A DNA stretch of 37,333 bases. Origin: Candidatus Aenigmatarchaeota archaeon. Its GTDB lineage: Archaea; Aenigmatarchaeota; Aenigmatarchaeia; QMZP01. The DNA is taken from positions 1 to 37,333 of the forward strand of contig JAUWZW010000003.1 in NCBI GenBank assembly GCA_030615165.1, read 5' to 3'. The translations under genes were made by a program, and so were the position numbers. Positions 17,393 to 35,703 of this stretch are shown here, in pieces. The notes below the pieces were generated by a model, which was not told the DNA's origin, did not search any database, and saw nothing but the letters and a program-made list of their open reading frames with translations. Within the stretch, counting starts at the first letter, position 1, and every line of letters begins with the position of its first letter.

Positions 17393-18529
17393 ATGAGGCA
17401 GCTGAAAGGTGTTGAGGATTTCATATATGTGCTTGCAGTAGCGCTGATTCTGATACTTGTTTTTGCAGCCATATCCGCACTATGGCCTGTAGGGCCGGGC
17501 GGAGGTGTTGTCGGTAATGTTTCCATTGCAGAGTTCTCACTGGGAGGTGTTGGTTATTCAGGGGATTATGAAGCAAGCTCTATTACACTGGGCTCTTTCA
17601 GTGTCGGGGAGACCCAGACAGAGAATCTCAGGACCGCTCCGCAGCTAAGCCTTTCATCAAGCCTGCTCGGTTCGAAAAAAGAGACCTTCAGCATAAATGT
17701 GCTCAGCGCGTACCAGGATTCCCTGAGGGATGTTCTGATAAGCTTTGATGTTTTTGAGACAAACCAGTATGGGGATTTGGTTGTGAAATGGAACGGGAAT
17801 GAGTTCTACAGGGGCAGGGCGAGCCCGAGGGATTACAGCATTGTTATTGACAAGAGCAGCGTGAAGAGCATGAACACGCTGGAGATTTACTGCGACGGGC
17901 CGGGGCTAATATTCTGGGCATCCACTGTATATACGCTCAGGAACTTCAATGTTGACCTGGAATACGGGCCATCAAAGATATTTGCGTTCACCCTCTCCCA
18001 GGGAGAGATAGAGGCATGGGACAGGGGAGAGGTGAGTTTTTACGGCTTTGGAACAGGGGACAAACTGACCCTTGAGGTTAATGATGTTGAGATATATGAG
18101 CAGGCCCCTTCCGGTTCCACAACCATTACGTTCAACTACACGTCTGCCCCGCTCAGGGTCGGGCAGAACCTTCTAACCATTAAAACAGATACAGGTGTCT
18201 TTACCCTGCAGAATGCGGTGTTCAAGATATTCCTTCTCACAAACCTTGTTGCAAAGCAGAGGACATTCGAGCTGGATTCTGACCAGTATGCCAGGCTGGC
18301 AGAGCAGGGTTATGCAGGTGTAATAGAGTTCAAGGTGGATTCCATTGAAAGGTCTGGTGTTCTGGATGTGGAATTGAACAGGAATGACCTGGCAGTGCCC
18401 CTTCCGCGGACAGGATGGAACAACATCACGTTCACTGATGCAGAGGCGAGTATAGGGACCAACACACTCGAATTCTCAGGAAACGGCTACTGGGACATAA
18501 GCGAAGTAAAGGTCAGGCTGGAGAAATAG
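17393..18529 (+). CDS. N-terminally anchored extracellular protein, beta-rich, unknown function
   Basis: 378 aa with one N-terminal TM helix (FIYVLAVALILILVFAAISAL), then a Gly/Thr/Ser-rich beta-like sequence. Confidence 0.55.
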   Translation: MRQLKGVEDFIYVLAVALILILVFAAISALWPVGPGGGVVGNVSIAEFSLGGVGYSGDYEASSITLGSFSVGETQTENLRTAPQLSLSSSLLGSKKETFSINVLSAYQDSLRDVLISFDVFETNQYGDLVVKWNGNEFYRGRASPRDYSIVIDKSSVKSMNTLEIYCDGPGLIFWASTVYTLRNFNVDLEYGPSKIFAFTLSQGEIEAWDRGEVSFYGFGTGDKLTLEVNDVEIYEQAPSGSTTITFNYTSAPLRVGQNLLTIKTDTGVFTLQNAVFKIFLLTNLVAKQRTFELDSDQYARLAEQGYAGVIEFKVDSIERSGVLDVELNRNDLAVPLPRTGWNNITFTDAEASIGTNTLEFSGNGYWDISEVKVRLEK

Positions 18530-18569
18530 GCCCGCTTCTCCTTACACTTGGGATAAAAACGAAACTGGG

Positions 18570-18992
18570 TCAGGAGTTTAGAAGCCTGAGCATTTCCCCT
18601 GGCTTAACAATCTTGATGCCCCTGAATTCTCTAAGATTCAGTATGTGTTTATCATAAGAAACGATATATTCGGCGTTACTGTCAAGTGCAGCATCAAGCA
18701 TGATATTGTCTGCCGGATGCTCTTTTATTACATTAATAACCGATTTTGTATGGATAAGCGTGCTGATTTTCAGAATTGTCCTTATCAAATCCTCTATATT
18801 TTGTTTCCTTTCATCAAGAAAACGCTGGAATTTGGACTCCTTGCTCAACACCGCCGCAATTTCAAGCAGGATATCCCTGGTTATGGTTATTTCAATTCTG
18901 TCCTTTTCCGCTAACTCAATGATTCTGCTGGCTTCCCCTTCCCAGAATATTGCAGAAAGCCAGACATTGCTATCCAGGACCGCTCTTATCAT
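18570..18992 (-). CDS. vapC: PIN-domain ribonuclease toxin (VapC-like)
   Basis: It starts MIRAVLDSNVWLSAIFWEGEAS. The acidic PIN residues are conserved (D at 7, E at 44, D at 100/118). It overlaps the upstream antitoxin by 4 nt. Confidence 0.8.
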   Translation of the reverse strand: MIRAVLDSNVWLSAIFWEGEASRIIELAEKDRIEITITRDILLEIAAVLSKESKFQRFLDERKQNIEDLIRTILKISTLIHTKSVINVIKEHPADNIMLDAALDSNAEYIVSYDKHILNLREFRGIKIVKPGEMLRLLNS

Positions 18993-19261
18993 TTACCAGA
19001 CCTTCTAACCTCTTCTATAAGCACGTCCAACTCTTCCTTTTTGAAACCGGACATTTTTGCTGCCTTTCTAAAGGGCTTCACAGCCTCTCTCCAGGGTTTT
19101 ATCCTTGGCATTTCGATCTTCTTCAGCAGAATCATGTCGTCCTGTGATGTTACTGCAAACGGCGTTCCCTCCTTTAGATGGAGATCCTGCCTTATGTCCT
19201 GGGGTATTACAATCTGGCCCTTTGAGGACAGTTTTGTGAATTCTACCGTCATATTTATCAC
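18989..19261 (-). CDS. vapB: AbrB/SpoVT (MazE-like) swapped-hairpin antitoxin (VapB-like)
   Basis: MINMTVEFTKLSSKGQIVIPQDIRQDLHLKEGTPFAV is a classic SpoVT/AbrB N-terminus. 90 aa. Confidence 0.75.
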   Translation of the reverse strand: MINMTVEFTKLSSKGQIVIPQDIRQDLHLKEGTPFAVTSQDDMILLKKIEMPRIKPWREAVKPFRKAAKMSGFKKEELDVLIEEVRRSGK

Positions 19262-19311
19262 CTGTAAGAATGTAAGATTTGCAGATATTTAAAGCTTTGC
19301 TTTACCTTGAA

Positions 19312-19365
19312 ACGGCACCGGCTACTGGGAAATCAGCGAGGTCAGGGTCAGGCTGGAGAAGTAAG
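19312..19365 (+). pseudogene. remnant 3' gene fragment encoding NGTGYWEISEVRVRLEK*, a diverged copy of the C-terminus of 17393..18529 (NGYWDISEVKVRLEK*)
   Basis: It shows about 85% nucleotide identity over about 50 nt to 18481-18531. An in-frame TGA lies immediately upstream, so only the tail survives. The VapBC module lies between the two copies. Confidence 0.5.
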
Positions 19366-19453
19366 CAGGGTTTTGATAGTCAGTAATACTTAAAAAGCTT
19401 TCCATCAATTATTTATGAGTATAATTCCCACATTTCCCATTCAGGTGAGTTTA

Positions 19454-20386: not shown

Positions 20387-21157
20387 ATGAACCCAATAGA
20401 CCCTAATGAAATTCTAGGCAGCATGGATTTTTCTGATTTGGATAATTTAGATGAAGTTTCAGATGGCGGAGTCATAATGATGCCTGAAGGTGTAAAAGTG
20501 GCTGAGCCGATTGTGACAAGAGAGGCTGTATTGAAAAAAGTAAAAAGCCAGACAGTTTTGAGAACTAATCATCTTCTTGGTATGCGTTCATGGAGCTATA
20601 ATGAAAGGGGTGGCTATTTAGCGACTCACTTCATAAAGGAAAACGAGAAAAGTTACTGTCTTCCAGTTCCTTCTGGATACGAATATCTTGAACCCATCCT
20701 AGATTATCACCCCTATTCTGTTCGCCATTTTCGAGGGATGGTGCTTATAAGGGATTTACATAATGGTGATCCTGGAAGTGCAAACATTGATAGTAATCCA
20801 GAGCTGAATGGGTTTTCCGAAATGCTTAGTAGAAGAGGGCAATTCGGCGATTTCCTAAAGGGGCGTGGTGATTATGATCAAGGGCATAATCAACATCCAG
20901 TGGCGTGTGCAATCGATATTCTAGACCAACTTGGAAACTATACGAATAGGATTATAAAAAAAGGTAAAACAATTATACGAAAACCAATGGAAAATCTAAG
21001 TCATGACATATGGTACTTCCCTTTATGGGAAGTTCCTATAAAAATATTACCACCTAAAGAAAAAAAATATAACTGGGGAGTAGGTAAACCAGGCCTTGGT
21101 GCTTTCTATTTTGATGGTGTTTTTGGAGTAATGTTTAAGGCACTAAAGAGATATTAA
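20387..21157 (+). CDS. hypothetical protein, paralog A of an unrecognised family
   Basis: 256 aa. Shared with paralog B: an acidic N-terminus LD.LDEV.DGGVIMMPEGVKVA, then EPILDYHPYSV, NPELNGFS, IIRKP, DIWYFPLWEVP, FYFDGVFG. It is 9 nt downstream of the SPFH gene. Confidence 0.6.
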   Translation: MNPIDPNEILGSMDFSDLDNLDEVSDGGVIMMPEGVKVAEPIVTREAVLKKVKSQTVLRTNHLLGMRSWSYNERGGYLATHFIKENEKSYCLPVPSGYEYLEPILDYHPYSVRHFRGMVLIRDLHNGDPGSANIDSNPELNGFSEMLSRRGQFGDFLKGRGDYDQGHNQHPVACAIDILDQLGNYTNRIIKKGKTIIRKPMENLSHDIWYFPLWEVPIKILPPKEKKYNWGVGKPGLGAFYFDGVFGVMFKALKRY

Positions 21158-21178
21158 ATCTTTGTAAGTGGTGACTAT

Positions 21179-22243
21179 ATGAGACATGATGATATTTTAG
21201 GCGGATTGAACATGGAAAGTTTGGATGATTTAGGTGAAGGTGAATACATAGTGATGCCTGAGGGGGTTAAGGTAGCTCCTTATAAGGTCACCGCGGAAGA
21301 AGCAAGGGCTCTTGCACAAAAAGCTGCTGAATCATACAAAGATTCTGATGTATATTTTCATGTTGATCCGGCTGGTAGTGGTTGGGGAGAAGACTTTTTT
21401 GAAGATGGCCCAAGAATGTCCAAAAGATATGAAAATTTGATAAAGACACTCAAGGATAAGATGCCCGCCTTTTTGGAGATTATTGAATCCAAATACAGAA
21501 ACGAGGGACCGTATACTTTCACTGCTGGTTATCTTGGGATAAAACATGTTGATTTCGAGGCTGGTGAGCCAATTCTCGATTATCGCCCGTTATCTGTTTT
21601 TTTAGAGTCGAATCTTCTTCATGTGGAAGATTTGTATACAGGATATCGATATTATTGCAGGGCGACACTGCATCCTGAATTAAATGGTTACTCTAGCATA
21701 CAACCATCAGTTTCTGGGGATGATGAAAATTCTATTCCTTTTTCTATAAGTATGATAATGAATCATGGAAAACCGCTAAGAAAGATAGAAAAATCAGAAA
21801 AAGTTATAATAAGAGAACCCAGAAGAAAGCCTACACGGGGACCAAAAGGTGAAATTTGGTACTTCCCTCTATGGGAAGTGCCAATGGTATCGCACAGAGA
21901 ATTTTTGACTGAGCGGGGGACATACTTCTATCTAAAACGTGGTATTCTTTCCAATAAGTGCACATCGCACGAACACAAGTGGAGAATCCACGTACCTTTC
22001 ATTACCCGAGGTGCGGTATTTTTTGATGGGTTTTCAGGAAAGAAAATATCAAGTGTGTTAGCAGATTCCTTTTTCAATGCTGAAAATCCTCAAGATAATC
22101 AATTTAAATGCTATGCGATTTTGCTTTCGGATAAGAAAGATTTAATAAAAGTAGGATATGCGTATTTGGATTCCTGGCTTAGAAAATGTAGTTTAACAGA
22201 GAAAGAAATAATGAGTATACCAGAACGTATTGAATTTGGTTAA
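21179..22243 (+). CDS. hypothetical protein, paralog B of the same family (longer, C-terminal extension)
   Basis: 354 aa with LDDLGEGEYIVMPEGVKVA, EPILDYRPLSV, HPELNGYS, IIREP, EIWYFPLWEVP, VFFDGFSG. Confidence 0.6.
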   Translation: MRHDDILGGLNMESLDDLGEGEYIVMPEGVKVAPYKVTAEEARALAQKAAESYKDSDVYFHVDPAGSGWGEDFFEDGPRMSKRYENLIKTLKDKMPAFLEIIESKYRNEGPYTFTAGYLGIKHVDFEAGEPILDYRPLSVFLESNLLHVEDLYTGYRYYCRATLHPELNGYSSIQPSVSGDDENSIPFSISMIMNHGKPLRKIEKSEKVIIREPRRKPTRGPKGEIWYFPLWEVPMVSHREFLTERGTYFYLKRGILSNKCTSHEHKWRIHVPFITRGAVFFDGFSGKKISSVLADSFFNAENPQDNQFKCYAILLSDKKDLIKVGYAYLDSWLRKCSLTEKEIMSIPERIEFG

Positions 22244-23177
22244 TCTAATATTAAGTTCACATCGCTGGGGTTCTGATATTTATTCTGCCCAAGCTAATTA
22301 TTTAACAGGTGCTTTAGTGGCAAAAGACAGAATCCTTGAGAACAAGAACTGCCCCAGATGCTGGAACGGCATTCTTTATTCTACGAATATTGTGAGCAAA
22401 AGGAAGCTTGTCTACTACCAGTGTGCATACTGCGGCAGGATGATAACAAGGGGTGTGTTCAGGAAATTGATGGAGAGGATGGAGAAGATAGGAGCAATCG
22501 TGACATCTCATGAAAAGGCTAAGCTGCACAGGAAAAGGATTAGAAAAGCAAGAAAGGAGAAAAAGCCAGGATTCATCGTTGGTGTTGTAAGGGATGTGAA
22601 AAACAAAAAATCCCTTGGAGGGGTTTATGTTTACGTAAGGGGAATAGGCATTGAGGCATTCACCAATTCCTACGGGCAGTATGCATTAAAACCCATTCCC
22701 CCTTCAGAGAATATCACAGTGGAAACATCCAAGCCCGGATACAGGAGGAAGGGAAGGATTCTGAAGAGGGGGATAAAGAGGGGCGAGGTCAGGGAAATAT
22801 ATTTCGGCATAAGGACGTTAAGGGTCAGCAAGACACCCCCTCCGGAGTTCCCCGAACTCAGACCCATATGGGCAAGCCCTGAGGCAAAGAAGGCGCCCCG
22901 CCCGTCAGGCATCCATGGCTTTATCAGGGACAGCAAAGGCAATCCGCTGCAGGGTGCTATAATAACCATCTTTGCCGGGAGAAAGGAATACATAGTCCAG
23001 ACCGATGCAACTGGTCATTACGAGCTGCTCAATGCCCTGCCACCGGGATATTACCATCTCAAGGCAACAGCAGACGGGTTCACATATGACAGGAAAACAG
23101 TCAGGGTGGATTTCATGTTCCTCTCTGCACAGGACTTCAAACTGTTCGTCATGCCGAGGAGAAGCGCGGGCGGCTGA
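22230..23177 (+). CDS. C4 zinc-ribbon protein with two carboxypeptidase-regulatory-like (Cna-B-type) beta-sandwich domains
   Basis: The zinc ribbon is CPRCWNGILYS...YYQCAYCG. The beta domains are GVVRDVKNKKSLGGVYVYVRGIGIEAFTNSYGQYAL and GFIRDSKGNPLQGAIITIFAG...TDATGHYELLNALPPGYYHLKATADGFTYDRKTV. The start is uncertain, because the track ORF overlaps the upstream gene by 14 nt. Confidence 0.55.
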   Translation: MNLVNLILSSHRWGSDIYSAQANYLTGALVAKDRILENKNCPRCWNGILYSTNIVSKRKLVYYQCAYCGRMITRGVFRKLMERMEKIGAIVTSHEKAKLHRKRIRKARKEKKPGFIVGVVRDVKNKKSLGGVYVYVRGIGIEAFTNSYGQYALKPIPPSENITVETSKPGYRRKGRILKRGIKRGEVREIYFGIRTLRVSKTPPPEFPELRPIWASPEAKKAPRPSGIHGFIRDSKGNPLQGAIITIFAGRKEYIVQTDATGHYELLNALPPGYYHLKATADGFTYDRKTVRVDFMFLSAQDFKLFVMPRRSAGG

Positions 23178-23218: not shown

Positions 23219-26200
23219 GTGAAGGATTTGGTCAAGTGTAAGGATGTCGGGGGTCCAGATTGGTGCGATGAGGATGCGGAATATGTAAGGACATATAGGG
23301 AGAGGGGAGGTACTTACGTTGAGCTGAGATGTCCATCCGGTCATTTAAGTGTAATTCCTGTTTCTGAATACAGAGACAAAGTCAGGGCAGAAGAAGCAGC
23401 AAGAAGGATAACCAATGCGGATATTGCGCACTTAAGAATAGAGATAGAATCCATGGTTTTCCAGAGGTTGCCTGAGCGGCAGATGATAAATGAGGTTGTT
23501 CTTTACCTTGAGTCAACAGGAAGGTATGCAGCTTTGAAGAGGGAGGAACTTGAAAAAACAGCACGCAAGCTGTTGGATTTGGTTAGAAAGAAAATAGAAA
23601 AAGAAAGGCTGGGAGCTGTAAGTAAATACATATGTCCTGATTGCAAGAAGGTTTACCTGAATGAAAAGCCCGGGGCGGATGGCAACCTTCTTTATTACTT
23701 CTGCACAGAGTGCAAGAAAAAATTCTCTCCACGTGATATAAAGAGAAGAAAGGTTTATGGGAAGCCTGGTTGGTTGAAGAGGAGAAAGGCATACAGAGAG
23801 AAGAAAAAGGAGTTGAAAGGCACTGCAATCAAAAAGGAGTTGGAGGAGCTTGAAACCTTGGAAGAGAGAAGGCGAGCAGGTTTATTAACTGCTGATGAGC
23901 ATGAAAGGTTGTTAGAATTAAGGGGGACTGCAGCAGAAAAAAGGGAGGAATTCAAGGGTACACTCTTTGGTGCCAAGAAAGAATATAAAACTGGTGTGAG
24001 TGAGCTAAAGGAAAAGGCCAAAGCAGAGAAATGGACCAGGGTAAAATACAAGGAAGAAAAGAGAAAGCTCAAGGAGAAGTACATTAGAAGCAAAAGGGAA
24101 TATAAAGAGAAAGTGGGGAAAGAGAAAGAGAAGAGAAAGGCGCACATAGGAAAGAGGGTAACCGGTTTTATTGAAGATAAATGGGGCAAGGACGTGATGA
24201 AGGCATTTATCGTGATTCTCTTTGCTGCCCTGGGCTTTGCTATCTCAGGTGCTTTTGGAAGCATTTTATTCCTGTTCGGGTTCCTTTCATTGGCTCTTTA
24301 CTACATTTTCCCGAGCCCTGATGAAGAAACCCCGCCCCGGGAGCTGGCGAGACAACTCAAGGAAAACCCCCTGACATGGAGGATGGTGGGGTCAAGGGCC
24401 TTCCTGAGGAATCCCCACACGGTCTGGGGGTTCTTGAAAACAATCTTTAAACTGTCAACATTCATACTGTTCATTTTCGGTGTCTGGTACAGCCCGATGG
24501 TTCCGTTCAAGAATATAGTTTTGATAATACTGTGCTTTGGGGCATACTTCTCGCTCAAGATGACCTATAACACTCATATGCCGCACCAGTTCATAGAATC
24601 CGTGATAAGGTTTGGTCTGCTTGGGGCGTTCTTCATACCGTGGGTTATATTCTACGGGATTTTCCAGTCAGGTCTTCTTGCCCTGCTTGCAATGGCATTC
24701 TTCATGATTCCGCCCATAGCAGAGGACAAGCAGAATACTGAAACCTTTGCAATGTATGAAATGTTTGATAAATTCATATTTTTTGGTTTCATGCTCGTTG
24801 CGCTCATTGCATCCGGGGTTCTGCCTCTTCCATGGTTTGGTGAAGTTGGATGGAAACTTACAGGAACCCTCCAGTGGACATTCCTCTACTTCTGGGTTGT
24901 TTCCTTTGTTGCAGGATTCTTCTCTCCTGCACAGACAAGACCTGCAATGGGTTTCATAATGCTAGGCGCTGCTACCATAATCTACGGCATAGGGCCTGGG
25001 GCGCAGGAGTTCGGGACAGCTTTGCTTGGTCCCTGGTATCCTGTTATACAGAATCTTTTCAGCTCAATTGCAAAGCCGTTTGCTGAAGTATTCGGCCAGT
25101 TTGCAAACACATTCGGCAGTGCCCTGATGCTGCTTGTAAATCCTGTTGGGTATGCGCAGTCTATAATGAACGGAACGTATGCAAGGGATACCACTACAGG
25201 TTTGCAGGGCGCGTACGGCATTGAGATAGAGAGGTTTGAGGTAATGCCCATATACACAGAGAGCCCTTATGTTGTAAGTGTCATGGTTAAGAACAAGGGG
25301 GCGTTTGAGGCAAGGAATGTAATAGTTGCACTTGTCCCGAGCGTTAATGTACCCAGGGAGGAAAAGAGCTGGGTTTGGGGTGTCAAGGAGGCTGTGCTTA
25401 TTATACCGAAAGCTGCTGTGGCAGTTGGAGGTTGGAATCCTCTTAGTATTGAAGTGCACATGCCGTTTCTGAGGCCTAACATAACCATGACAAAGGAAGG
25501 GCTGGGATTTGTTGAAGAGCCTGATACGGACAGGGGCATAACACAGAAATGCATAGATGACAGGCGGTGTGTATTTGCCATAGGCAACATGACAAAGCTG
25601 CAGACAAGCCAGGCAAACTTCTACTCTGATGGTATAATGTGCCCTGCAGTGGTTAATTATGGCTTGATGACAAAGGAAAAGGCGAAAGTGCTCCCGTTCA
25701 TAGGCATGATACAGTATGACTACAACATAAGCTCGAACCTTGAGGTTGAGGCAATGAGCAAGGAGGAATGGGAAAGGCAGGTGGAGGAAATGGAGCTGCA
25801 GCCAAAGTTCAAGAAGCTTACAACCTTCACAAATGCGCCTGTCATGCTCAATCTGGACACACTGGAGCAGCCCATACTGGAGGGCTCACCATTCCATATA
25901 GCCCTGAACATTGTGTCTGCGCACAAGAAGGGGAGGGTAGTGGGCAATGCTACTGTAAGGTTGGAGATACCAACCAACTTCACGAAGGGGAAGGGAGAAG
26001 AAAACCTGCCTCCCTGCGTGCCGGATAAGATCAAACCCAAAATTATAAAGCAAGATGATACAACAACACTTCTCGAATGGAAAGGTCTCACCGAGCCTTA
26101 TGCCATATTCTGCAGCTTCCCTCCTGTGAAGGTTCCTGAAGGTCCTACAATAACATACATGGTAAGGGCTGATGCTAGTTACACATTCAGCAAGTGGGAC

Positions 26201-26617
26201 ACACTTGATACAAGGATGCAGTTCGGGGGGACAGCATGCTGCAAGAAATCCGAGGACTGTCCGATTCCCGGTCAGATATGCGACACATCAATAAATAAAT
26301 GCGGGGCTGGGGAAATTGATATTAGCGAAAGATTGTCTGAGCTTGAGGCGCGTATGAATGAACTCCAGAATGAAGTGGACCAGATAACAGAGGAGTTTGC
26401 TGATAAGCTTATAGTGGACATAAATGCATATGACCAGCTTCTGGATGAGATGGGCATCCTTAAACAGCAATACTCAGGTGATGCTGAGGTCATATCGGCT
26501 ATAGAGAATGTTGAAACCAGTGTTAATAATGCAATAAAAGTGGCATGTGAAAAATGCAGGAGATGGGGTGTGGATTGTCCATCAGACATCTGCAGTTCTG
26601 TGGGTGTTGATTTATAA
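23219..26617 (+). CDS. giant (1132 aa) polytopic membrane protein: N-terminal zinc ribbons + K/E-rich coiled coil + ~8 TM + large beta-rich domain + Cys-rich segment + C-terminal coiled coil
   Basis: The N-terminus has CKDVGG..WCDED...RCPSGH and YICPDCKK...YYFCTECKK zinc ribbons. A highly charged KEKxK block (aa ~190-300) follows. The hydrophobic core spans aa ~330-620. The long C-terminal soluble region has CARDB-like strands (YVVSVMVKNKGAFEARNVIVALVPSV). The coiled coil is EIDISERLSELEARMNELQNEVDQITEEF. Confidence 0.75.
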   Translation: MKDLVKCKDVGGPDWCDEDAEYVRTYRERGGTYVELRCPSGHLSVIPVSEYRDKVRAEEAARRITNADIAHLRIEIESMVFQRLPERQMINEVVLYLESTGRYAALKREELEKTARKLLDLVRKKIEKERLGAVSKYICPDCKKVYLNEKPGADGNLLYYFCTECKKKFSPRDIKRRKVYGKPGWLKRRKAYREKKKELKGTAIKKELEELETLEERRRAGLLTADEHERLLELRGTAAEKREEFKGTLFGAKKEYKTGVSELKEKAKAEKWTRVKYKEEKRKLKEKYIRSKREYKEKVGKEKEKRKAHIGKRVTGFIEDKWGKDVMKAFIVILFAALGFAISGAFGSILFLFGFLSLALYYIFPSPDEETPPRELARQLKENPLTWRMVGSRAFLRNPHTVWGFLKTIFKLSTFILFIFGVWYSPMVPFKNIVLIILCFGAYFSLKMTYNTHMPHQFIESVIRFGLLGAFFIPWVIFYGIFQSGLLALLAMAFFMIPPIAEDKQNTETFAMYEMFDKFIFFGFMLVALIASGVLPLPWFGEVGWKLTGTLQWTFLYFWVVSFVAGFFSPAQTRPAMGFIMLGAATIIYGIGPGAQEFGTALLGPWYPVIQNLFSSIAKPFAEVFGQFANTFGSALMLLVNPVGYAQSIMNGTYARDTTTGLQGAYGIEIERFEVMPIYTESPYVVSVMVKNKGAFEARNVIVALVPSVNVPREEKSWVWGVKEAVLIIPKAAVAVGGWNPLSIEVHMPFLRPNITMTKEGLGFVEEPDTDRGITQKCIDDRRCVFAIGNMTKLQTSQANFYSDGIMCPAVVNYGLMTKEKAKVLPFIGMIQYDYNISSNLEVEAMSKEEWERQVEEMELQPKFKKLTTFTNAPVMLNLDTLEQPILEGSPFHIALNIVSAHKKGRVVGNATVRLEIPTNFTKGKGEENLPPCVPDKIKPKIIKQDDTTTLLEWKGLTEPYAIFCSFPPVKVPEGPTITYMVRADASYTFSKWDTLDTRMQFGGTACCKKSEDCPIPGQICDTSINKCGAGEIDISERLSELEARMNELQNEVDQITEEFADKLIVDINAYDQLLDEMGILKQQYSGDAEVISAIENVETSVNNAIKVACEKCRRWGVDCPSDICSSVGVDL

Positions 26618-26707: not shown

Positions 26708-27253
26708 TCAGTTGTTCACGTCTGGAGCCAGAATCACAGCTTCACTGTTCGGCCCGGGAGGAGCAGGCGGCATTGTTCTGGCGCGTATTGTCGTATTCAG
26801 TTCTCGGATCGATTGGGCAACGCTCTGGTTGGCATTCTTCAAGTCTCTCATGTCACTCTGTAGTTCTCCCACTTGGCCTTTCATGTGGTCGAATCCGCGT
26901 TCAAGCCTTTCGACCCTTCGCTCAAAGGCGGCATCGCCCCTGGTTCTCCGGGTAGTCGGTCTCGGAGGAGCAGGCGGAGCAACAGGTGCTGGCCTGTACC
27001 AATTCCTCATGTCTTTGATTACTTCATCGGCTCCGTCGCGTAAGGTTTTGGCGCGGCCGTGTACAGCAGCAGCAAATGCTTCTGCCTTCTCGGCGTCTAT
27101 GTGCAGTTGATTCAGCACTTGCTCTTCCAGGGGTACCGAGTTTGAGCGCTGGCCGATTCCCGGTAGTGGGTCTGCGATACCTTTGTATATAACGCCCCCA
27201 ATGAAGCATGCCACCAACAACACGGCAATAAATATGGTCTTTTTCCAGTCCAT
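26708..27253 (-). CDS. N-terminally anchored coiled-coil protein with Pro-rich segments and C-terminal tail ...EAVILAPDVNN
   Basis: 181 aa. GGAGGT lies 6 nt upstream of the ATG. The TM helix is TIFIAVLLVACFIGGVIY. The coiled coil is RVERLERGFDHMKGQVGELQSDMRDLKNANQSVAQSIRELN. The last ~12 codons and 3' flank are shared with 29209..30114. Confidence 0.6.
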   Translation of the reverse strand: MDWKKTIFIAVLLVACFIGGVIYKGIADPLPGIGQRSNSVPLEEQVLNQLHIDAEKAEAFAAAVHGRAKTLRDGADEVIKDMRNWYRPAPVAPPAPPRPTTRRTRGDAAFERRVERLERGFDHMKGQVGELQSDMRDLKNANQSVAQSIRELNTTIRARTMPPAPPGPNSEAVILAPDVNN

Positions 27254-27342
27254 AACGGACCTCCTTTCATCTGTCTAAACCTTAAATTCCTTTTAGCTTG
27301 TCGCTTGTTTCAGCAGGCAGAAGGCACAACAGCAAAAATACT

Positions 27343-28272
27343 TTAGCCCTGAGTCGGCTGCTTCAGCAGCTTTTCAACCACTTCAGAAACTACCAGCCAT
27401 CTTCCCTTGTCACCAGGTTGTTTCTTGATGACTTTGTCACCGGCAAACCTGTCACGTAGTTGACGTGATTCTTGATTTGACAGATTGAACTTGTCTCTTA
27501 CCTGACTTCTGTTGAATGTTTCTTTATCTTTGAGGTATTCCAATTTCTTCCTGTAATCATCGTCAATGACAGGTTTTTCCTCTTGGGCAACGGTGGTAGG
27601 GGCAGCAGTTGTTGCCGATTCTGGTTCTGGCTCAGCAGGCTCGGGTACGGGTTGCTCGGTTTCGGCAACTGGTTCCTCAGCCTCTGCAGTGGTCTCTGCA
27701 GGCTCTTCCTTTGGCTGCTGCTCAATCTCGGTCTTGATAACCTTTAGCGTTCCCAAATCCAGAAGGGTCTGAAGAATTTCAGGGGTCATTATGCATTCCC
27801 TGCCTTTGTGTTCAACAAATGAACCGAGAACACCAAGTTTCTCCAGCTTGGTTAGAACCGAATCGGCTTCTGCACGTTTGATGCCCAATGATTTAAGCAC
27901 CTTATCATACAGGGAACCCACACCCCAGTTCTTGCCCTTGCCACCGGCAACAACAATGCTGATGATTTTGAGCATTTCTTCGGAAATCTGGGTTGTTTCA
28001 GCAGCTGGAGGGGGAGTAGGTTCAGCGGGTTCGGTGGGTTCAGGTGTTTCAGCGGGCTCATGGGATTCGGGTGTTTCAGGCGCAGTTACTGTCTGGAGCC
28101 CCTCAACTTTTGAAGTGTCAAGCTCCTCCTGAGGCTGGTCAACTGCAGGAGGAGGTTCTTCGATGCCCTGCTGCCGGGGTTGCTTGTCCGGTTGGGACTT
28201 TGACCCCGCGACCAAGATGCCCGCTACTATTAATAACGCGAGTAATACTAAACAAAGTGTTCCTAAATCCAT
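27343..28272 (-). CDS. membrane-tethered protein with Pro/Glu-rich linkers and two small globular (possibly winged-helix-like) modules
   Basis: 309 aa with an N-terminal TM (LCLVLLALLIVAGILVAG). The linkers are PETPESHEPAETPEPTEPAEPTPPP and EPAETTAEAEEPVAETEQPVPEPAEPEPE. GAGGTGA lies 4 nt upstream of the ATG. Confidence 0.55.
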   Translation of the reverse strand: MDLGTLCLVLLALLIVAGILVAGSKSQPDKQPRQQGIEEPPPAVDQPQEELDTSKVEGLQTVTAPETPESHEPAETPEPTEPAEPTPPPAAETTQISEEMLKIISIVVAGGKGKNWGVGSLYDKVLKSLGIKRAEADSVLTKLEKLGVLGSFVEHKGRECIMTPEILQTLLDLGTLKVIKTEIEQQPKEEPAETTAEAEEPVAETEQPVPEPAEPEPESATTAAPTTVAQEEKPVIDDDYRKKLEYLKDKETFNRSQVRDKFNLSNQESRQLRDRFAGDKVIKKQPGDKGRWLVVSEVVEKLLKQPTQG

Positions 28273-28299
28273 ATATCACCTCACTTTCTACAATCTTTT

Positions 28300-28338
28300 T
28301 CTCTATTCTCAAGTCTCATTTCTCTATTCTCAAGTCTC
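28300..28338. repeat. tandem direct repeat, 2 x TCTCTATTCTCAAGTCTC with 21-nt period, in the promoter region of 27343..28272
   Basis: Read directly from the sequence. On the minus strand the repeats lie 30-65 nt upstream of the ATG at 28272. This is a candidate operator or promoter element. Confidence 0.6.
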
Positions 28339-28725
28339 TTTCAACGCTTGAAGCTTATTTTGGGCTCTTGTGCACCAATCAGGTGTTAGGAAAAGAGCGC
28401 GGTGGGCCCTCCAGCCTTTTCCAGTTCGCCCGCGTCTCCATATTACATGCCAGAAGACAACACCATTGCCGCAATCCTTCTCTTCAGGAATATCATCTTC
28501 CAGCCACACCTTAGGATTTGTGAGCTCGCAGGTGACATTGCTTTTTCTGCCATCCTTGCGAAATTTTGGATCATCCGGCGGGTCAATCACTGCAAATACT
28601 TTTCCATGCTTTTTCAGTATGTCGGAAAGATACCCAAAATAGACTTCATAACCTTCATCTGGCTGTGGCGCTTTCACATCAAAACTACCTCCTTTCCTGC
28701 TAAAACAAGCAAACAAGAACAACAA
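28330..28725 (-). CDS. hypothetical protein (weakly supported)
   Basis: 131-aa ORF with no recognisable motif. The start is uncertain. The coding call rests only on ORF length and being in the same orientation as its neighbours. Confidence 0.3.
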   Translation of the reverse strand: MLFLFACFSRKGGSFDVKAPQPDEGYEVYFGYLSDILKKHGKVFAVIDPPDDPKFRKDGRKSNVTCELTNPKVWLEDDIPEEKDCGNGVVFWHVIWRRGRTGKGWRAHRALFLTPDWCTRAQNKLQALKET

Positions 28726-29149
28726 AATAAAACCTTTGAGACACGCTTATCAGGAACCAGGAAGGGGTTCTTCCCGGGTTAAAAAGGATTTGATAGGTTC
28801 GGCTATACAAAAACCCTCATCCCAAGACCGAATGCATGCGCCTATAAGTTTTATGCATTGTTAACTTCTCAAGGCACAATATGGTTTGGGATTCGGTTAT
28901 AGCCAAGTTCTTCAATGTTGTCTGCAACAGAATATTTATTCAAATATCCTGAGGACCCGAATGGGTTTCATGTGATGTTGTATTTGTGGAATATGATGAT
29001 ATGATGTATTGAATATGAAAGTGATATTGCTTAATTATACAGGGGAAAGCTTTATAAACCTTTCTGTATTTGTCACTGTAAAGAAGTTAAATATTTGTTA
29101 TATTTGGTTTATTCTTTGACGCCGTTAAGTTGACAGTTACAAAAGGAAA

Positions 29150-29185
29150 GGCGGGGCTGGTTCTTGGGAACCATATAACCCCGCC
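29150..29185. terminator. conserved GC hairpin GGCGGGGCTGGTTC ttgg GAACCATATAACCCCGCC downstream of the PspA-like gene
   Basis: Followed (on the minus strand) by TTTCCTTTTGTAACTGTCAACTTAAC. This is the same module as at 26634-26685. Confidence 0.6.
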
Positions 29186-29208
29186 TCTTGTCGCCATCTT
29201 GTCGTCAA

Positions 29209-30114
29209 TTAGTTGTTCACATCAGGGGACAGTATTACTACTTCAGGCTCGGCACTTTCAGGCTCCGGCTCTGCAGCAGCTGGCTCCTCAGTGCTGGCAG
29301 GCGGCTCGGTGCCGAAGTAAGCGTTGATTGCTTCAGTAGCATTCCTTGGCCCAACCTCGGCTTCCCAGTCAACTATCTCACCCCTGCCTGTTCCAACCGC
29401 AGTTTCACGGGTAACCCTCAGATCAGCTTCAAGCTCCAGATAACGGTTCTGAAGGGCGTTCATTGCCCTTGTGACACCGCTGGCAGAACCAAGGGGGTCG
29501 CCCTTGATAGCCTTAACAAGTTCTGAAACCTGAACCTCTACCTGTTTGGCAGCGATCTTGGCTTCCCATTCCTGGATTTTGCCCGTAAGTTCATTAACCT
29601 TGTTGGTAGCAATAACCAGCTGACTCTTTGCCTCTTCTATCTCTCTGCTAAGCCCCTCAAGAAGGATTTCCTTCTCTTTTATTTCTGTATCCAGGGCTTT
29701 GCAGCGGTCGATCCGGAGGAGGGCATCCTGGTTAACCTGCTCCCAGGTATAGGATTTGTTGTTGACTGTGATGGAATTGCCAGGCTGGCTGTTGGCAAGA
29801 ACCGTCTTGACTTTCTTCAGTATGGCCTCATTGCCTGCCTTGCGCTCTTTGAGCTCTTCAACATCTTCTGCGATAAGATTTGCCTTGATTTCACCCCTGC
29901 TGATATTCACATGATAGTTGCGAATTTTTCCTCGGCATTTCTCAGCTTCATCTTTGGCTATATCCACAAGGGTGTTAAGAGAGGCCTTATCGTCAAGATA
30001 ATCCGCAACACGTTTGCCCCTTGCATTGATGTGAGCACCCAGGTTGGGGACAATTGTCCAACCTAATACAGCAACTATGGCGACAGCCACTACAATAATC
30101 CAAAAAGTTTTCAT
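29209..30114 (-). CDS. N-terminally anchored coiled-coil protein, PspA/IM30/ESCRT-III-like (tentative), with acidic/Pro tail ending ...VVILSPDVNN
   Basis: The probable start is MKTFW (GAGGTG 6 nt upstream). The track ORF start at 30123 appears to be a GTG. The TM is WIIVVAVAIVAVLGWTIV. Long amphipathic helices (LIAEDVEELKERKAGNEAILKK...; ...GSASGVTRAMNALQNRYLELEADLRVTRE) resemble the PspA helix pattern. It is about 65% identical to 31037..31858. Confidence 0.6.
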   Translation of the reverse strand: MKTFWIIVVAVAIVAVLGWTIVPNLGAHINARGKRVADYLDDKASLNTLVDIAKDEAEKCRGKIRNYHVNISRGEIKANLIAEDVEELKERKAGNEAILKKVKTVLANSQPGNSITVNNKSYTWEQVNQDALLRIDRCKALDTEIKEKEILLEGLSREIEEAKSQLVIATNKVNELTGKIQEWEAKIAAKQVEVQVSELVKAIKGDPLGSASGVTRAMNALQNRYLELEADLRVTRETAVGTGRGEIVDWEAEVGPRNATEAINAYFGTEPPASTEEPAAAEPEPESAEPEVVILSPDVNN

Positions 30115-30120
30115 AATACA

Positions 30121-30245
30121 CACCTCTTTTCTTCACAAAAAGGGTTAACATTTTTGCAAGCTTCCTCAATAATCTGTTCTGTCTGTTTGGGGGATTTTCT
30201 GAATAACCTCCTTTCTGCCAGGGACCCATGCCAGGCAGACAGAAA
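30121..30245. repeat. promoter/5'UTR block copy 1, duplicated at 31863..31987 with near identity
   Basis: About 115 nt are almost identical: ...TTCACAAAAAGGGTTAACATTTTTGCAAGCTTCCTCAATAATCTGTTCTGTCTGTTTGGGGGATTTTCTGAATAACCTCCTTTCT..GGGACCCATGCCAGGCAGACAGAAA. It contains an inverted repeat TCTGCC...GGCAGA. Confidence 0.7.
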
Positions 30246-30299
30246 TATTGGTTCAGCTTGCATCAGTAAGAAACGCTAATACACGAGTCCTTTATTAAC

Positions 30300-30923
30300 T
30301 TAATGTTTATGAACCAAAGACCGCCTTGGTTCCGGGAATTTCTTTCCCGTAACATTCTCATAGAGCCTGGCAAGATTCTTCTCAAGATTCCTCATGTGTC
30401 TGGGGTAAAGGGAAATCACCTTTATACCGTGCTTTCTATAAAGCCATTTCTTTCCATTCATTTTCTCCACGTAGTTCATATCATCATCAGCCAAGCCCCA
30501 GAACTCAATGAAAACCTTTTCTCTGGGCAGATAAAAGTCCGGTCTGAGTTCTATGCCGTCAAGAATCAAAGGGTGCTCATACCTGTATGTGATGCCCCGC
30601 TTGTCAAGCAGTTCTGCTATCCGTTTCTCTGACCTGCTTCTGACCCTGACTCCTGAGTTGGTTCTTACGCTTCTTCCGTTGTATAATGCCCATGTATCAA
30701 GTTTGTCCAAAAGCAGGGAGAGATAGAATTTTGCTCTGATAAGCCAGTCCAAAAACCGGTTTCCTGTCCTTTTAAATTGGGGTCTTTTGGTGCCCCCGCG
30801 GATGAATGAGAAGATGGCCTTGTCCAGTCTGCTGAATTCCCTGCCAGGTGTATTGATAACCGCATCGTCAAGTCTGTCAAGTACCCACATTATTATCCTC
30901 CTTTTCGGTTTTTGCTTATTCAC
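30300..30923 (-). CDS. hypothetical protein, possible DUF559/Vsr-like (PD-(D/E)xK-type) nuclease fold
   Basis: 207 aa. RPDFYLPREKVFIEFWG resembles the RxDF...IE.DG core of endonuclease-like DUF559 domains. This is weak. Confidence 0.4.
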   Translation of the reverse strand: MNKQKPKRRIIMWVLDRLDDAVINTPGREFSRLDKAIFSFIRGGTKRPQFKRTGNRFLDWLIRAKFYLSLLLDKLDTWALYNGRSVRTNSGVRVRSRSEKRIAELLDKRGITYRYEHPLILDGIELRPDFYLPREKVFIEFWGLADDDMNYVEKMNGKKWLYRKHGIKVISLYPRHMRNLEKNLARLYENVTGKKFPEPRRSLVHKH

Positions 30924-30952
30924 ATCTGTTCACCTCTTTCTTAACCAAGAAA

Positions 30953-30988
30953 AGGCAGGGGCTGGTTGGAACCATATAACCCCTGCCT
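30953..30988. terminator. third copy of the conserved hairpin (AGGCAGGGGCTGGTT GGAACCATATAACCCCTGCCT)
   Basis: It lies between the stop of 31037..31858 (-) and the start of 30300..30923 (-). On the minus strand it is followed by TTTTCTTGGTT. Confidence 0.6.
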
Positions 30989-31036
30989 CTTTTAACCAGG
31001 TAATTGCTCCCTACACCAGGGAACACAAGTGCTGGC

Positions 31037-31858
31037 TCATTCGCTTTGCCCTGAGAAGTAGGCGTCAATTGCTTCAGCAGCTTTCCTTGGTGCGATATCG
31101 CCTTCCCAGTCAACGATGTTATCCCTGCCTGTTCCGACCGCGGTTTCACGGGCAACCCTTACATTGGCTTCAAGCTCCAGATAGCGGTCCTGAAGGGCGT
31201 TCATTGCCCTTGTAATCCCGCTGGTAGAACCAAGGGGGTCGCCCTTGATAGCCTTAACAAGTTCTGAAATCTCGACCTCTACCTCTTTGACAGCGATCTT
31301 GATTTCCCATTCCTGGATTTTTCCCGTCAGCTGGTTGGTTTTATCAATAGCAATAACCATCTGCCTCTCCGCATCTTCTATCTCTCTGTTGAGCCCATCA
31401 AGAAGGGTTTCCTTCTCTTTTATTTCGGTATCCAGGGTTTTGCAGCGGTCGATCCGGAGGAGGGCATCCTGGTTAACCTGCTCCCAGGTATAGGATTTGT
31501 TGTTGACTGTGATGGTGTCGCCAGGCTGGTTTTCCTTAAGAGCCTTCCCTGCTTTCTTGAGTATGGCCTCGTTGCCTGCCTTGCGCTCCTTGAGCTCTTC
31601 AACATCTTCTGCGATAAGATTTGCCTTGATTCTGCACCTGCTGATGTTCATCTGGTACTCAGATATCCTTTCAAGGCTTTTCTGGACTTCCTTTTTAGCA
31701 ATGTCAATGAGCTCCTGCAGAGACGCCTTCTTGTCAAGGTACTCCGCAGCACGCTCACCCTTTGCACTGATGTGAGCGCCCAGGTTGGGGATGACTGCAG
31801 AGGCAATGGCACCAAGTATGCAGACAGCCACCACGATAATTAGTATTTTTCTAAACAT
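31037..31858 (-). CDS. PspA/IM30/ESCRT-III-like (tentative) membrane-anchored coiled-coil protein, tandem paralog of 29209..30114
   Basis: The probable start is MFRKILIIVVAV (GAGGTG 4 nt upstream). Many stretches of about 75 nt are identical to the paralog at nucleotide level (e.g. 31441-31516 matches 29700-29775). The C-terminus differs (...AYFSGQSE). Confidence 0.6.
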   Translation of the reverse strand: MFRKILIIVVAVCILGAIASAVIPNLGAHISAKGERAAEYLDKKASLQELIDIAKKEVQKSLERISEYQMNISRCRIKANLIAEDVEELKERKAGNEAILKKAGKALKENQPGDTITVNNKSYTWEQVNQDALLRIDRCKTLDTEIKEKETLLDGLNREIEDAERQMVIAIDKTNQLTGKIQEWEIKIAVKEVEVEISELVKAIKGDPLGSTSGITRAMNALQDRYLELEANVRVARETAVGTGRDNIVDWEGDIAPRKAAEAIDAYFSGQSE

Positions 31859-31862
31859 AATA

Positions 31863-31987
31863 CACCTCTGTTTCTTCACAAAAAGGTTAACATTTTTGCA
31901 AGCTTCCTCAATAATCTGTTCTGTCTGTTTGGGGGATTTTCTGAATAACCTCCTTTCTACCCGGGACCCATGCCAGGCAGACAGAAA
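31863..31987. repeat. promoter/5'UTR block copy 2
   Basis: See 30121..30245. Confidence 0.7.
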
Positions 31988-32055
31988 ACTGACCCGGCCT
32001 GCGTTAAGGAAACAACAGAATTACATGAATCCTCTGTTAACAATAACCGTTTATA

Positions 32056-32727
32056 TCAGCCAATAAGACTTCCTGTAATCATCAGGTTTGCAAGCACAAG
32101 CAGGACACCCAGAGATAAAATGCTCCAGGCAATGGCCCACCCAAGGGCATGGACCTTTGTCATGCTCTGCAACTGCTCTGCATCCGTGTCCCCGCTCTGC
32201 CTGTGCCAGAGCCTTTTCCTGTAATGGCTTATAACAACAAAGGAATAGAGCACAGAACACAACCCAATAAATCTTGCGATAAAGTTTTCAATTGCGCCCG
32301 TAAGGAATATCCCGGCAGCAATAAGCGCTATTCCCGTGGCAATCGAGGAGAAGAACATCCTGGAATCCCTGACCCAGAGGAGCGTAAGGAGCAGGACCAT
32401 CAGGCCCATGAATGTGAGCGCATGGCCGGATGCATTTGTGTACGTCAGGTAGAAAAAGAAGAACCCGATAAGGATGCTGCCCAGGTATCCTGCATTCAGT
32501 ATTAGAAATGTGTTTCCTCCAAGGGTTTCTGTAATCCAGTATCCCCTTACTTTGTCGAATACTATCCCCTTTACCCTGCCTCCTGTAAGCACTGCTGCAA
32601 GGGCATGGCTGGCCTCATGGTAGAGGATGGTGAGCAGCCTTATGGGATAGGTGAAAATACTCCTCCAGCTCATCCATACAAGGATGAAGAGAAGGAGCAT
32701 GAGGATTAATTCTCTGAAATTATCCAT
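32056..32727 (-). CDS. membrane-embedded HExxH zinc metallopeptidase-like protein (site-2-protease/M50-like, tentative)
   Basis: LTILYHEASHALAAVLTGG places HExxH inside a TM helix. There are 5-6 TM segments. The likely start is MDNFRE (GGAGGTG 6 nt upstream). Confidence 0.45.
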   Translation of the reverse strand: MDNFRELILMLLLFILVWMSWRSIFTYPIRLLTILYHEASHALAAVLTGGRVKGIVFDKVRGYWITETLGGNTFLILNAGYLGSILIGFFFFYLTYTNASGHALTFMGLMVLLLTLLWVRDSRMFFSSIATGIALIAAGIFLTGAIENFIARFIGLCSVLYSFVVISHYRKRLWHRQSGDTDAEQLQSMTKVHALGWAIAWSILSLGVLLVLANLMITGSLIG

Positions 32728-32771
32728 GGTAACACCTCCTTTCACAAAACAAGGATTGCCATAACATTTTT

Positions 32772-33845
32772 CTAACGCTTCGGTTTTTGCTTGACCTCAA
32801 AACCTTTCCAAACTTGATGGGGAAGTGGGGATTGTTTTTTCTCTGGCCGGGACTTCTTTGGTTCTGACTTCTCTGGCCGGGATTTTTTGCCGCTCTTTTC
32901 TTCATTTTTTTTCAGGATACTCTCAATTCTCTCATATGCTTTACTATCCTTCTTTTGTTCCTTAAGGGCGGCTCTGAGCTCCGGCTCCACCTCGGTGCCT
33001 AAGTCCACCAGTATGAAGGTGGCATGGTCCTGAATAGCACCGGAACCCTTCAAGCTGTCATTAATGATCCTCCTAACTGGTGACCTGTCTGCCGGGTTAG
33101 TCTGGATGAGTGACTTGTCAGCATATAAACTTAATTTCCTTTCTTCAGGATCGCTGTTTTTTGCATAGTAGCTTTCCATAATCACCTTCAGTACAGGGAC
33201 AGCCGCCTTTGCATTGGGGCCTATCTCTCCTAGGGCTTTTATTGCTGCCAGGCGCACATGAATCTCAGAATCACCCACGGCTGTTTTTACAAGCGCAGGA
33301 ACAGCAGGAGCAGATGCAGGGCCTATCTTTCCCAGGGCTTCTGCAGCAGCTAATCGTATATTACCATATCTGTCAGACAGTTTGGTGTTGAGTGTCTTGA
33401 CTGCATCCTTAGCCCTGGATCCCATCTTCCCTATGGCATTGATAACTGCTACCTGCAGCACCTTCGGTTGCGAATCACCAAGGCTTTTAACAAGCGCGCT
33501 TACTGCTTCTTTTGTATCCTCTGCATCCGGACCTATTTCACCAAGTATTTCAGCAGCAGCAATGCGTATATCAGCGCTTTTACTGCCTAGCTGCTTTATC
33601 AGCGGCTTTACAGCAGGCCTGCCTATCTTTACCAGGGATTTTTGAACGTTCTTTTTTATTCCGGTATCCTTGTATTTCTCGCAGAGGAGTTTGACAAGCT
33701 CTTCAGCGACATCTGCTTCTGTTGGTATGTTGGGGTTTGCCTCGGTATTGGCCTTTTCAGGCACATAGCCCATCGCGATGTTACAGCTGTACAGGATCGG
33801 CAGCAGAACTATTAGTATTCTTATTGTCTTGTTCAGGTGTTTCAT
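32772..33845 (-). CDS. secreted/lipo HEAT-repeat (PBS-lyase-type) protein with a K-rich C-terminal tail
   Basis: The signal peptide is MKHLNKTIRILIVLLPILYSCNIAMG. Repeats are IRIAAAEILGEIGPDA, IRLAAAEALGKIGPAS and VRLAAIKALGEIGPNA. The tail is KKSRPEKSEPKKSRPEKKQ. Confidence 0.65.
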   Translation of the reverse strand: MKHLNKTIRILIVLLPILYSCNIAMGYVPEKANTEANPNIPTEADVAEELVKLLCEKYKDTGIKKNVQKSLVKIGRPAVKPLIKQLGSKSADIRIAAAEILGEIGPDAEDTKEAVSALVKSLGDSQPKVLQVAVINAIGKMGSRAKDAVKTLNTKLSDRYGNIRLAAAEALGKIGPASAPAVPALVKTAVGDSEIHVRLAAIKALGEIGPNAKAAVPVLKVIMESYYAKNSDPEERKLSLYADKSLIQTNPADRSPVRRIINDSLKGSGAIQDHATFILVDLGTEVEPELRAALKEQKKDSKAYERIESILKKNEEKSGKKSRPEKSEPKKSRPEKKQSPLPHQVWKGFEVKQKPKR

Positions 33846-33906
33846 TTATTCGCCTCCTTTCGTTCAAAAACAGGGAAGGGGGCGACCCGAGTAAGCATCG
33901 CCCCGG

Positions 33907-35663: not shown

Positions 35664-35703
35664 AATTCAAACTCCTTTCTGACGCTGTTGCGCCTTTAAA
35701 GGT

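Follow-up and report, generated by a model that had tools for sequence, protein, structure and literature searches.

A rare archaeal protein family encoded beside anchorless stomatin-like proteins as a candidate SPFH operon partner

The window analysed here, a stretch of 37,333 nucleotides from Candidatus Aenigmatarchaeota archaeon (assembly GCA_030615165.1, contig JAUWZW010000003.1, positions 1 to 37,333), encodes two adjacent paralogous proteins, A and B, whose family appears from database searches to be undescribed and very rare. The gene directly upstream of A encodes a stomatin-like SPFH protein. SPFH proteins (stomatin, prohibitin and flotillin, as well as HflK/C) form membrane cages, and what these cages enclose or recruit is a central open question for most of them. 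The best reading of the sequence comparisons is that the A/B family is a new family of SPFH operon partners, and we consider it somewhat probable that the family protein is a physical and functional partner of SPFH. The significance of the family lies in its conserved pairing with an anchorless stomatin rather than in a catalytic motif.

A and B are paralogs, as the earlier note on this DNA, made from the sequence alone, had proposed. BLASTP aligns them at 27% identity over ~250 columns (E 3e-17), and the motif blocks quoted in that note are co-linear in a MAFFT alignment of the two. EPILDYHPYSV in A corresponds to EPILDYRPLSV in B, PELNGFS to PELNGYS and DIWYFPLWEVP to EIWYFPLWEVP. The last block is also common to both (AFYFDG in A, AVFFDG in B, aligned as G-A-x-[FY]-F-D-G), although the shared part is FDG and not the FFDG first given. 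The N-terminal segment is acidic as described, with a net charge over the first 30 residues of -8 in A and -7 in B, and MPEGVKVA follows it in both proteins; the LDxLDE element fails in B, which reads LDDLGE. The longer paralog had been credited with about 100 additional residues at its C-terminus. B exceeds A by 98 residues, of which, on our reading of the alignments, only ~59 lie past the end of A. A ends just past the G-A-x-F-x-D-G block; B has the complete core, with an SFF..(E/N) block and a final beta strand. About 35 of the ~59 residues (B ~288-324) are a part of the conserved family core that is missing from A, made up of the DSYFD..SS block and this final strand. The remaining excess in B is mostly sequence of the N-terminal region and a beta hairpin longer by ~20 residues (B 236-255), and A has a 14-residue insert of its own after PELNG.

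When 1.84 billion cluster representatives were scanned exhaustively with HMMER and an A/B profile (E <= 0.001), 27 matches were returned: A, B, two spurious repeat proteins and 23 credible relatives that carry the full block set (alignments A2 and A3). Chance does not account for the blocks that A and B share: the profile was made from these two proteins only, and it recovered 23 others in which the blocks recur. A core hidden Markov model (HMM) of the family recovers A at 2.6e-40 and B at 4e-68. The family consensus runs F-E-x-G-x-P-I-L-x-Y-x-P-Y-x-V; D-L-x-S-G; P-E-L-D-G-F-x-S; I-I-R; E-x-W-Y-x-P-x-W-E-V-P; G-A-x-F-x-D-G-x-x-G; and D-S-Y-F-D-x-x-x-x-S-S, and the N-terminal motif of B is kept as h-P-x-G-V-x-h-x-x-P in most relatives (alignment A2). 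A profile search of the kind suggested in the earlier note leads to a small family, and the note's remark that neither protein matches a recognised domain holds: neither A, B nor any of the 23 homologs has a Pfam-A match, and in a scan of 25 members at E <= 1 no Pfam family was matched by two or more members. NCBIfam, PHROGs and PADLOC gave no match for A or B, and a profile search of all PDB sequences with both proteins gave nothing relevant. Word-index homology searches with B alone, the full alignment (a search dominated by low-complexity tails) and the core alignment found essentially only the window's own proteins; a related-locus search with a 7-sequence core led to one genome contig, and a metagenome scan to the same contig.

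The two matches rejected as relatives, P0016 (747 aa) and P0025 (888 aa), are highly repetitive and resemble the profile in the MPxGV stretch alone. The N-terminal '..MP.G(V)..' stretch was matched 11 times in P0016 and 4 times in P0025, whose repeat, GY.TMPGGE..QVPPDVQ.AA.KMM, loosely resembles the motif and the helix that follows it.

Gene context was read from the contigs of twelve homologs, giving 12 distinct loci including the window and one contig without DNA. The family gene abuts a co-oriented Band_7/SPFH gene in 8 of the 12, and probably in one more. SPFH lies directly upstream of the family gene in the window, where A starts 9 nt beyond the SPFH stop codon, and likewise at L005, L006-8, L011-14, L015 (4-nt overlap) and L017. 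The upstream gene at L017 itself has no Pfam match, but its product aligns with the Band_7 protein of L011 at 37% identity (E 4e-80). The order is reversed on the P0008 contig and at L018 (4-nt overlap), where SPFH is immediately downstream, and probably also at L004, whose next gene, beginning VRILEYEKGVKF, lies at the end of the contig.

The SPFH proteins of these loci resemble one another. The window protein matches PF01145 with 99.8 bits (gathering cutoff 23.6; E 2.5e-28), and its best sequence relatives in the PDB are stomatin chains (E 3e-23). It is 68% identical to the SPFH protein adjoining the homolog at L015, 51% to that at L005 and 44% to that at L006. The partner SPFH proteins align end to end and have in common a C-terminal extension of ~100 residues (alignment A5) marked by GHPVTQ, DPKYTYLMT.LQN and a terminal ..KLYP (..KLYPK in the window). 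Stomatin, HflK/C and flotillin carry an N-terminal transmembrane (TM) helix or hairpin. The window SPFH protein has no N-terminal TM segment and no 19-residue stretch that reaches a Kyte-Doolittle (KD) hydropathy of 1.5. All seven partner SPFH proteins that were examined lack TM segments: six that were scanned have no 19-residue window with KD >= 1.5, and the L018 protein has a maximum KD of 1.18. As judged by sequence, the partner SPFH proteins are one separate stomatin-like subfamily without a membrane anchor. Such a partner is unusual; only 2 of 12 prokaryotic SPFH subfamilies were predicted to be soluble in the survey of Hinderhofer et al. (PMC2636767).

Some members of the A/B family themselves carry hydrophobic segments. 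A C-terminal segment with KD >= 1.5 occurs in 9 of the 23 relatives, and marginally in 2 others. Viewed by eye, many of these segments consist of two glycine-rich helices, and charged coiled-coil-like tails sometimes come after them. An N-terminal signal or TM segment is absent from every family member. By the same KD scan, A and B have no hydrophobic segment and no integral membrane segment. A, B, P0005, P0008, P0011 and P0018 all lack the C-terminal segment though their genes adjoin SPFH, so an anchoring role could be general for only part of the family. The general feature of the family is the SPFH pairing itself.

AlphaFold2 (AF2) modelled B from the 25-sequence alignment with a mean pLDDT (predicted local distance difference test) of 79.5 and a pTM (predicted template modelling score) of 0.77; on the two-sequence alignment the pLDDT was 28. 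In the model of B, two short strands from the MPEGVKVA motif precede a helix at 39-51, with block pLDDT values of 90-97 across residues 21-60. A low-confidence linker (61-80) leads to a long helix (85-107), four or five strands within 111-161 and a further helix (185-196). Very long antiparallel strands follow at 225-253, 260-283, 289-298 and 311-324, with EIWYFPLWEVP at the start of the first, a strand of 29 residues; the tail from 322, the C-terminal ~30 residues, is of low confidence. The predicted fold is an alpha+beta domain in which helices pack on a long curved antiparallel sheet. Foldseek against the PDB and BFVD found nothing at E < 0.2, and resemblances to a PepSY-like or lipid-cup-like fold are leads from the model, not findings.

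The reading frame of B also bears on its length. In the public gene call, B (P0001, 343 aa) begins at M12 and not at the ATG at 21179, so that 21179-21211 is skipped. The 354-aa reading is preferable, because GGTGA, a Shine-Dalgarno-like sequence, lies 6 nt 5' of that ATG and because the ILG residues preceding M12 are also present in A. B therefore probably starts at ATG 21179, the start taken in the earlier note, and the public call would be 11 codons too short.

The earlier note had asked whether homologs are always duplicated, and they are not: most loci have one family copy, and the only other tandem pair is at L009/L010. The upstream paralog there (L009 3-1334, L010 3-1304; core HMM E 6e-54) runs off the contig end and is overlooked by the stored gene calls, which place small reverse-strand genes in its position. 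By eye this extra paralog, which is not among the 23 relatives, carries TM helices at its C-terminus together with a Cys-rich tail that resembles a zinc ribbon. In an unbootstrapped neighbour-joining tree, A falls with P0011, P0003, P0005 and P0007, and the genes of these four come after SPFH wherever their context is known; B falls with P0004, P0006, P0008 and P0018, where SPFH is downstream when present. Because A and B group with different relatives, the window pair looks like an old duplication or a joining of two family lineages rather than a recent event. The L009 pair clusters together, with P0003, and is on this tree a separate duplication event. Between the window and L015, the SPFH proteins are 68% identical and A is only ~22-30% identical to P0011; by this comparison, the family partner evolves much faster than the SPFH scaffold.

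As far as gene content indicates, the family is archaeal wherever a source can be assigned. Genes for an eRF1/Pelota-type protein and for a Vps4-like ATPase lie in the window; at L017 there are ribosomal protein S8e, an S-layer protein (PF07752) and an RtcB that contains an intein; and L018 carries RNA polymerase subunit N. L001 is a Candidatus Woesearchaeota metagenome-assembled genome from Guaymas. There the family gene lies downstream of a 757-aa open reading frame (ORF; L001 37-2310), with a 284-aa TM protein between them, and by eye the 757-aa ORF combines a Ser/Thr kinase domain with right-handed beta-helix-like repeats.

These observations are best explained by a model in which A and B are anciently diverged paralogs and the family forms a conserved, tightly coupled two-gene module with a stomatin-type SPFH protein whose customary N-terminal anchor has been lost. 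The family protein would be cytoplasmic and non-enzymatic, without a signal peptide, and would most likely bind the SPFH oligomer stoichiometrically on its cytoplasmic side as an adaptor, a tether or a caged client. It would thereby take the part of NfeD beside ordinary stomatins and, in the closer analogy, of YdjG/YdjH beside the anchorless Bacillus protein YdjI. In the TM-bearing members, roughly half of the family, the C-terminal hydrophobic hairpin would put the SPFH complex on the membrane; members without TM segments, such as A and B, might instead serve as an adaptor or client of the SPFH oligomer. In the window, A in the post-SPFH position and B from the clade found upstream of SPFH elsewhere may act as a soluble or peripherally bound heteromeric partner, because neither copy has the hairpin. 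Any specific sub-role, whether adaptor, anchor or client, is much less secure than partnership as such. A bolder extension is that the anchorless stomatin and the family build a new archaeal SPFH compartment, either attached by the hairpin or soluble and closed like vaults, with A and B as organising or cargo subunits and possibly with the neighbouring Vps4/PspA-like genes; this we regard as speculative and unlikely.

Several observations weigh against partnership with SPFH. Four loci have no visible SPFH gene (L003, L016, L009/L010 and L001). The L003 and L016 contigs are shorter than 2 kb and the L009/L010 pair runs off its contig end, which leaves L001, with 3.1 kb of upstream sequence and no SPFH gene, as the only informative locus without the pairing; the adjacency to SPFH that the earlier note had wanted checked is seen at the eight loci, probably at a ninth, and not at L001. 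The idea of an anchor fails for the window, P0005, P0008, P0011 and P0018, in which neither partner has a TM segment. The divergence between A and P0011 is unusually fast for an obligate structural partner, and the fold model was built on only 25 sequences.

Among other explanations, the one given most weight is that the protein is a lipid-binding or lipid-transfer cup of the BPI/TULIP, NTF2-like, Tim44-C or Ups1 type, which would bind or sort membrane lipids in the patch organised by SPFH. BPI/TULIP domains have a long helix, a highly curved sheet around it and a lipid cavity. We consider a lipid cup unlikely, and it is compatible with the partner model. Less probable again is that the protein is a strongly diverged tandem of PepSY-like domains and acts as regulator or inhibitor of some other protein, such as a protease, in the manner of PepSY propeptides and YpeB. 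PF03413 is unmatched at E <= 1 in 25 members, and an hhalign comparison of the two core halves aligned the expected hairpins only at E ~0.1 with a probability below 1%. PepSY domains are also typically extracytoplasmic, whereas this family has no signal peptide and an acidic N-terminus, and no conserved protease gene lies nearby.

The patchy and very rare distribution of the family and its fast sequence divergence would suit a different origin, with the SPFH and family pair as cargo of a mobile element or as an anti-virus or conflict system, and toxin-antitoxin genes do adjoin the module in the window (PIN/AbrB) and at L005 (NTase/HEPN). We nevertheless think this improbable: PADLOC and PHROG searches gave no match for A or B, a family pattern scan of IMG/VR viral contigs and a tblastn search of phage records and plasmids with B found nothing, Foldseek against BFVD was equally empty, and no integrase or other mobile-element genes were seen beside the module. 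The least credible alternative is an enzyme, with the core at which the earlier note took the conserved acidic and aromatic residues to hint. E167 and R212 (B numbering) are conserved family-wide, and several D/E and W/Y/F positions are common to A and B. The columns conserved in at least 90% of sequences, however, are P137, L152, L168, P230, Y135, G155, E167, G170, R212, P235, G278 and G287, which apart from E167 and R212 are all structural residues, mostly Pro, Gly or Leu. None of Ser, Cys, His or Lys is conserved as a nucleophile, there is no conserved set of metal ligands, and no enzyme family is similar by sequence or fold. The structural nature of the conserved columns, together with the variation of W227, W232 and E233 of the IWYFPLWEVP motif among relatives, argues against an enzymatic core and makes an active site very improbable; a binding surface, envisaged alongside it, remains plausible.

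The genes around the SPFH, A and B module are listed in the table. The 315-aa gene overlaps the end of B by 14 nt (PF13620 E 1.8e-20, PF13715 E 3.5e-14) and is probably outside the core module, because it is not conserved beside homologs elsewhere; neither it nor the 378-aa and 1132-aa proteins has a homolog in loci L001-L017 by tblastn. By eye the 1132-aa protein shows paired cysteines reminiscent of zinc ribbons, a long run rich in Lys and Glu, many hydrophobic segments and, at its C-terminus, a large domain. The 378-aa protein has no Pfam or NCBIfam match, and its leader may be an archaeal pilin-like signal. A 53-nt direct repeat with 83% identity (18479-18531 and 19314-19366) brackets the PIN/AbrB cassette (18570-19261). 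The second repeat copy, just upstream of SPFH, preserves as a fossil 17 codons from the 3' end of the 378-aa gene (..GTGYWEISEVRVRLEK*), and a TGA at 19308 closes it on the upstream side. This arrangement suggests that the toxin-antitoxin cassette or a rearrangement split an older junction of the 378-aa gene and SPFH.

Downstream of the SPFH operon lies a convergent minus-strand cluster (26708-37326), which, on its gene content, may be an ESCRT (endosomal sorting complex required for transport)/PspA-like membrane-remodelling locus. It recalls the SPFH-ESCRT and SPFH-PspA links described in two published studies (PMC11188069, PMC8581546). Among the genes listed for the family loci L005, L006-8, L011-14 and L017, none has an AAA or Vps4 Pfam family. 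Rfam and tRNA scans of the window found no RNA genes.

Table. Coordinates of the module, its conserved blocks and neighbouring genes in the window
Feature	Position	Strand	Remarks
378-aa TM protein	17393-18529		single N-terminal hydrophobic helix after short charged leader (MRQLKGVEDFIYVLAVALILILVF..)
Stomatin-like SPFH/Band_7 protein, 320 aa	19415-20377	+	directly upstream of A
Paralog A ORF, 256 aa	20387-21157	+	short form, no TM segment, acidic N-terminus
DIWYFPLWEVP block of A, residues 207-217	21005-21037	+
Paralog B ORF, 354 aa	21179-22243	+	full-length form, complete core, no TM segment
N-terminal motif of B, YIVMPEGVKVAPY, residues 23-35	21245-21283	+	two short strands in model
EPILDYRPLSV block of B, residues 130-140	21566-21598	+	Y135 and P137 invariant or nearly so in family
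PELNGYS block of B, residues 166-172	21674-21694	+	E167, L168 and G170 kept family-wide
EIWYFPLWEVP block of B, residues 225-235	21851-21883	+	P230 invariant, P235 nearly
315-aa protein	22230-23177	+	CxxC zinc-ribbon-like N-terminus and two CarboxypepD_reg domains
1132-aa protein	23219-26617	+	several hydrophobic segments by eye
Coiled-coil protein	29209-30123	-	sub-threshold PspA_IM30 match, E 0.0076; several other coiled-coil proteins in cluster
M50B peptidase	32056-32745	-
HEAT/adaptin-like protein	32772-33845	-
Vps4-like AAA ATPase	33907-34992	-	AAA and Vps4_C domains
FtsX-like permease	35704-37326	-

The extreme rarity of the family (23 clusters among 1.84 billion representatives) restricts its general importance, and its interest is moderate and falls mainly within SPFH and archaeal cell biology. 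The family has neither a described domain nor a relative of solved structure, and it adds a little to the protein-fold catalogue and to archaeal 'dark matter'. With its SPFH protein it would also offer a compact two-protein system for asking how an SPFH oligomer reaches the membrane, or works without one. Below, we compare the module with systems that it resembles in part.

The PepSY fold consists of a helix packed on a 4-stranded sheet. Membership of the A/B family among PepSY-like proteins (YpmB 2gu3, YpeB, FoxB) is not supported, with the Pfam PepSY profile unmatched, the internal repeat non-significant and the predicted location, cytoplasmic rather than secreted, the wrong one. The euryarchaeal 'Meth_adaptin' ESCRT-like loci of Makarova et al. 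2024 share with the window an archaeal SPFH protein in a membrane-remodelling context, and in the window the genes for a Vps4-like AAA ATPase and for a HEAT/adaptin-like protein lie at a distance of 10-12 kb. Unlike the window protein, however, the SPFH proteins of those loci have coiled-coil and zinc-ribbon additions, and the passages of that paper on SPFH, adaptin and HEAT proteins name no A/B-like family (PMC11188069).

A closer functional parallel for the TM-bearing half of the family is found in the Bacillus subtilis pspA-ydjGHI operon, in which the anchorless SPFH protein YdjI requires the operon-encoded membrane proteins YdjG and YdjH (PMC8581546). As in that operon, where YdjI depends on its operon partners for membrane localisation, the anchorless SPFH protein of the archaeal module would reach the membrane through its partner. 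The systems, compared here by description, differ in that the B. subtilis one is bacterial, linked to PspA and reliant on integral membrane partners, whereas A and B have no TM segment.

The usual SPFH operon partner in prokaryotes is NfeD (PMC2636767), which combines a C-terminal OB-fold beta-barrel with N-terminal or central TM helices (PMC4208085, PMC2636767). NfeD/STOPP proteins, for example Pyrococcus PH1510 (PF01957), are encoded in an operon immediately beside a stomatin-type SPFH gene and are presumed to assemble with its oligomer (PMC2636767, PMC4208085). The A/B family likewise adjoins such a gene, and many of its members also combine a soluble domain with hydrophobic helices. The differences lie in fold and in partner. 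A and B have no Pfam or NCBIfam match, and 25 members have no PF01957 or ClpP-type Pfam match at E <= 1; with neither an OB-fold nor a ClpP match, the family is not an NfeD member. It is modelled as an alpha+beta domain of helices on a sheet, to which no more than a C-terminal hairpin is added, and its SPFH partner lacks a membrane anchor of its own. The A/B family would thus represent a second SPFH partner family, unrelated to NfeD and tied to an anchorless stomatin subfamily.

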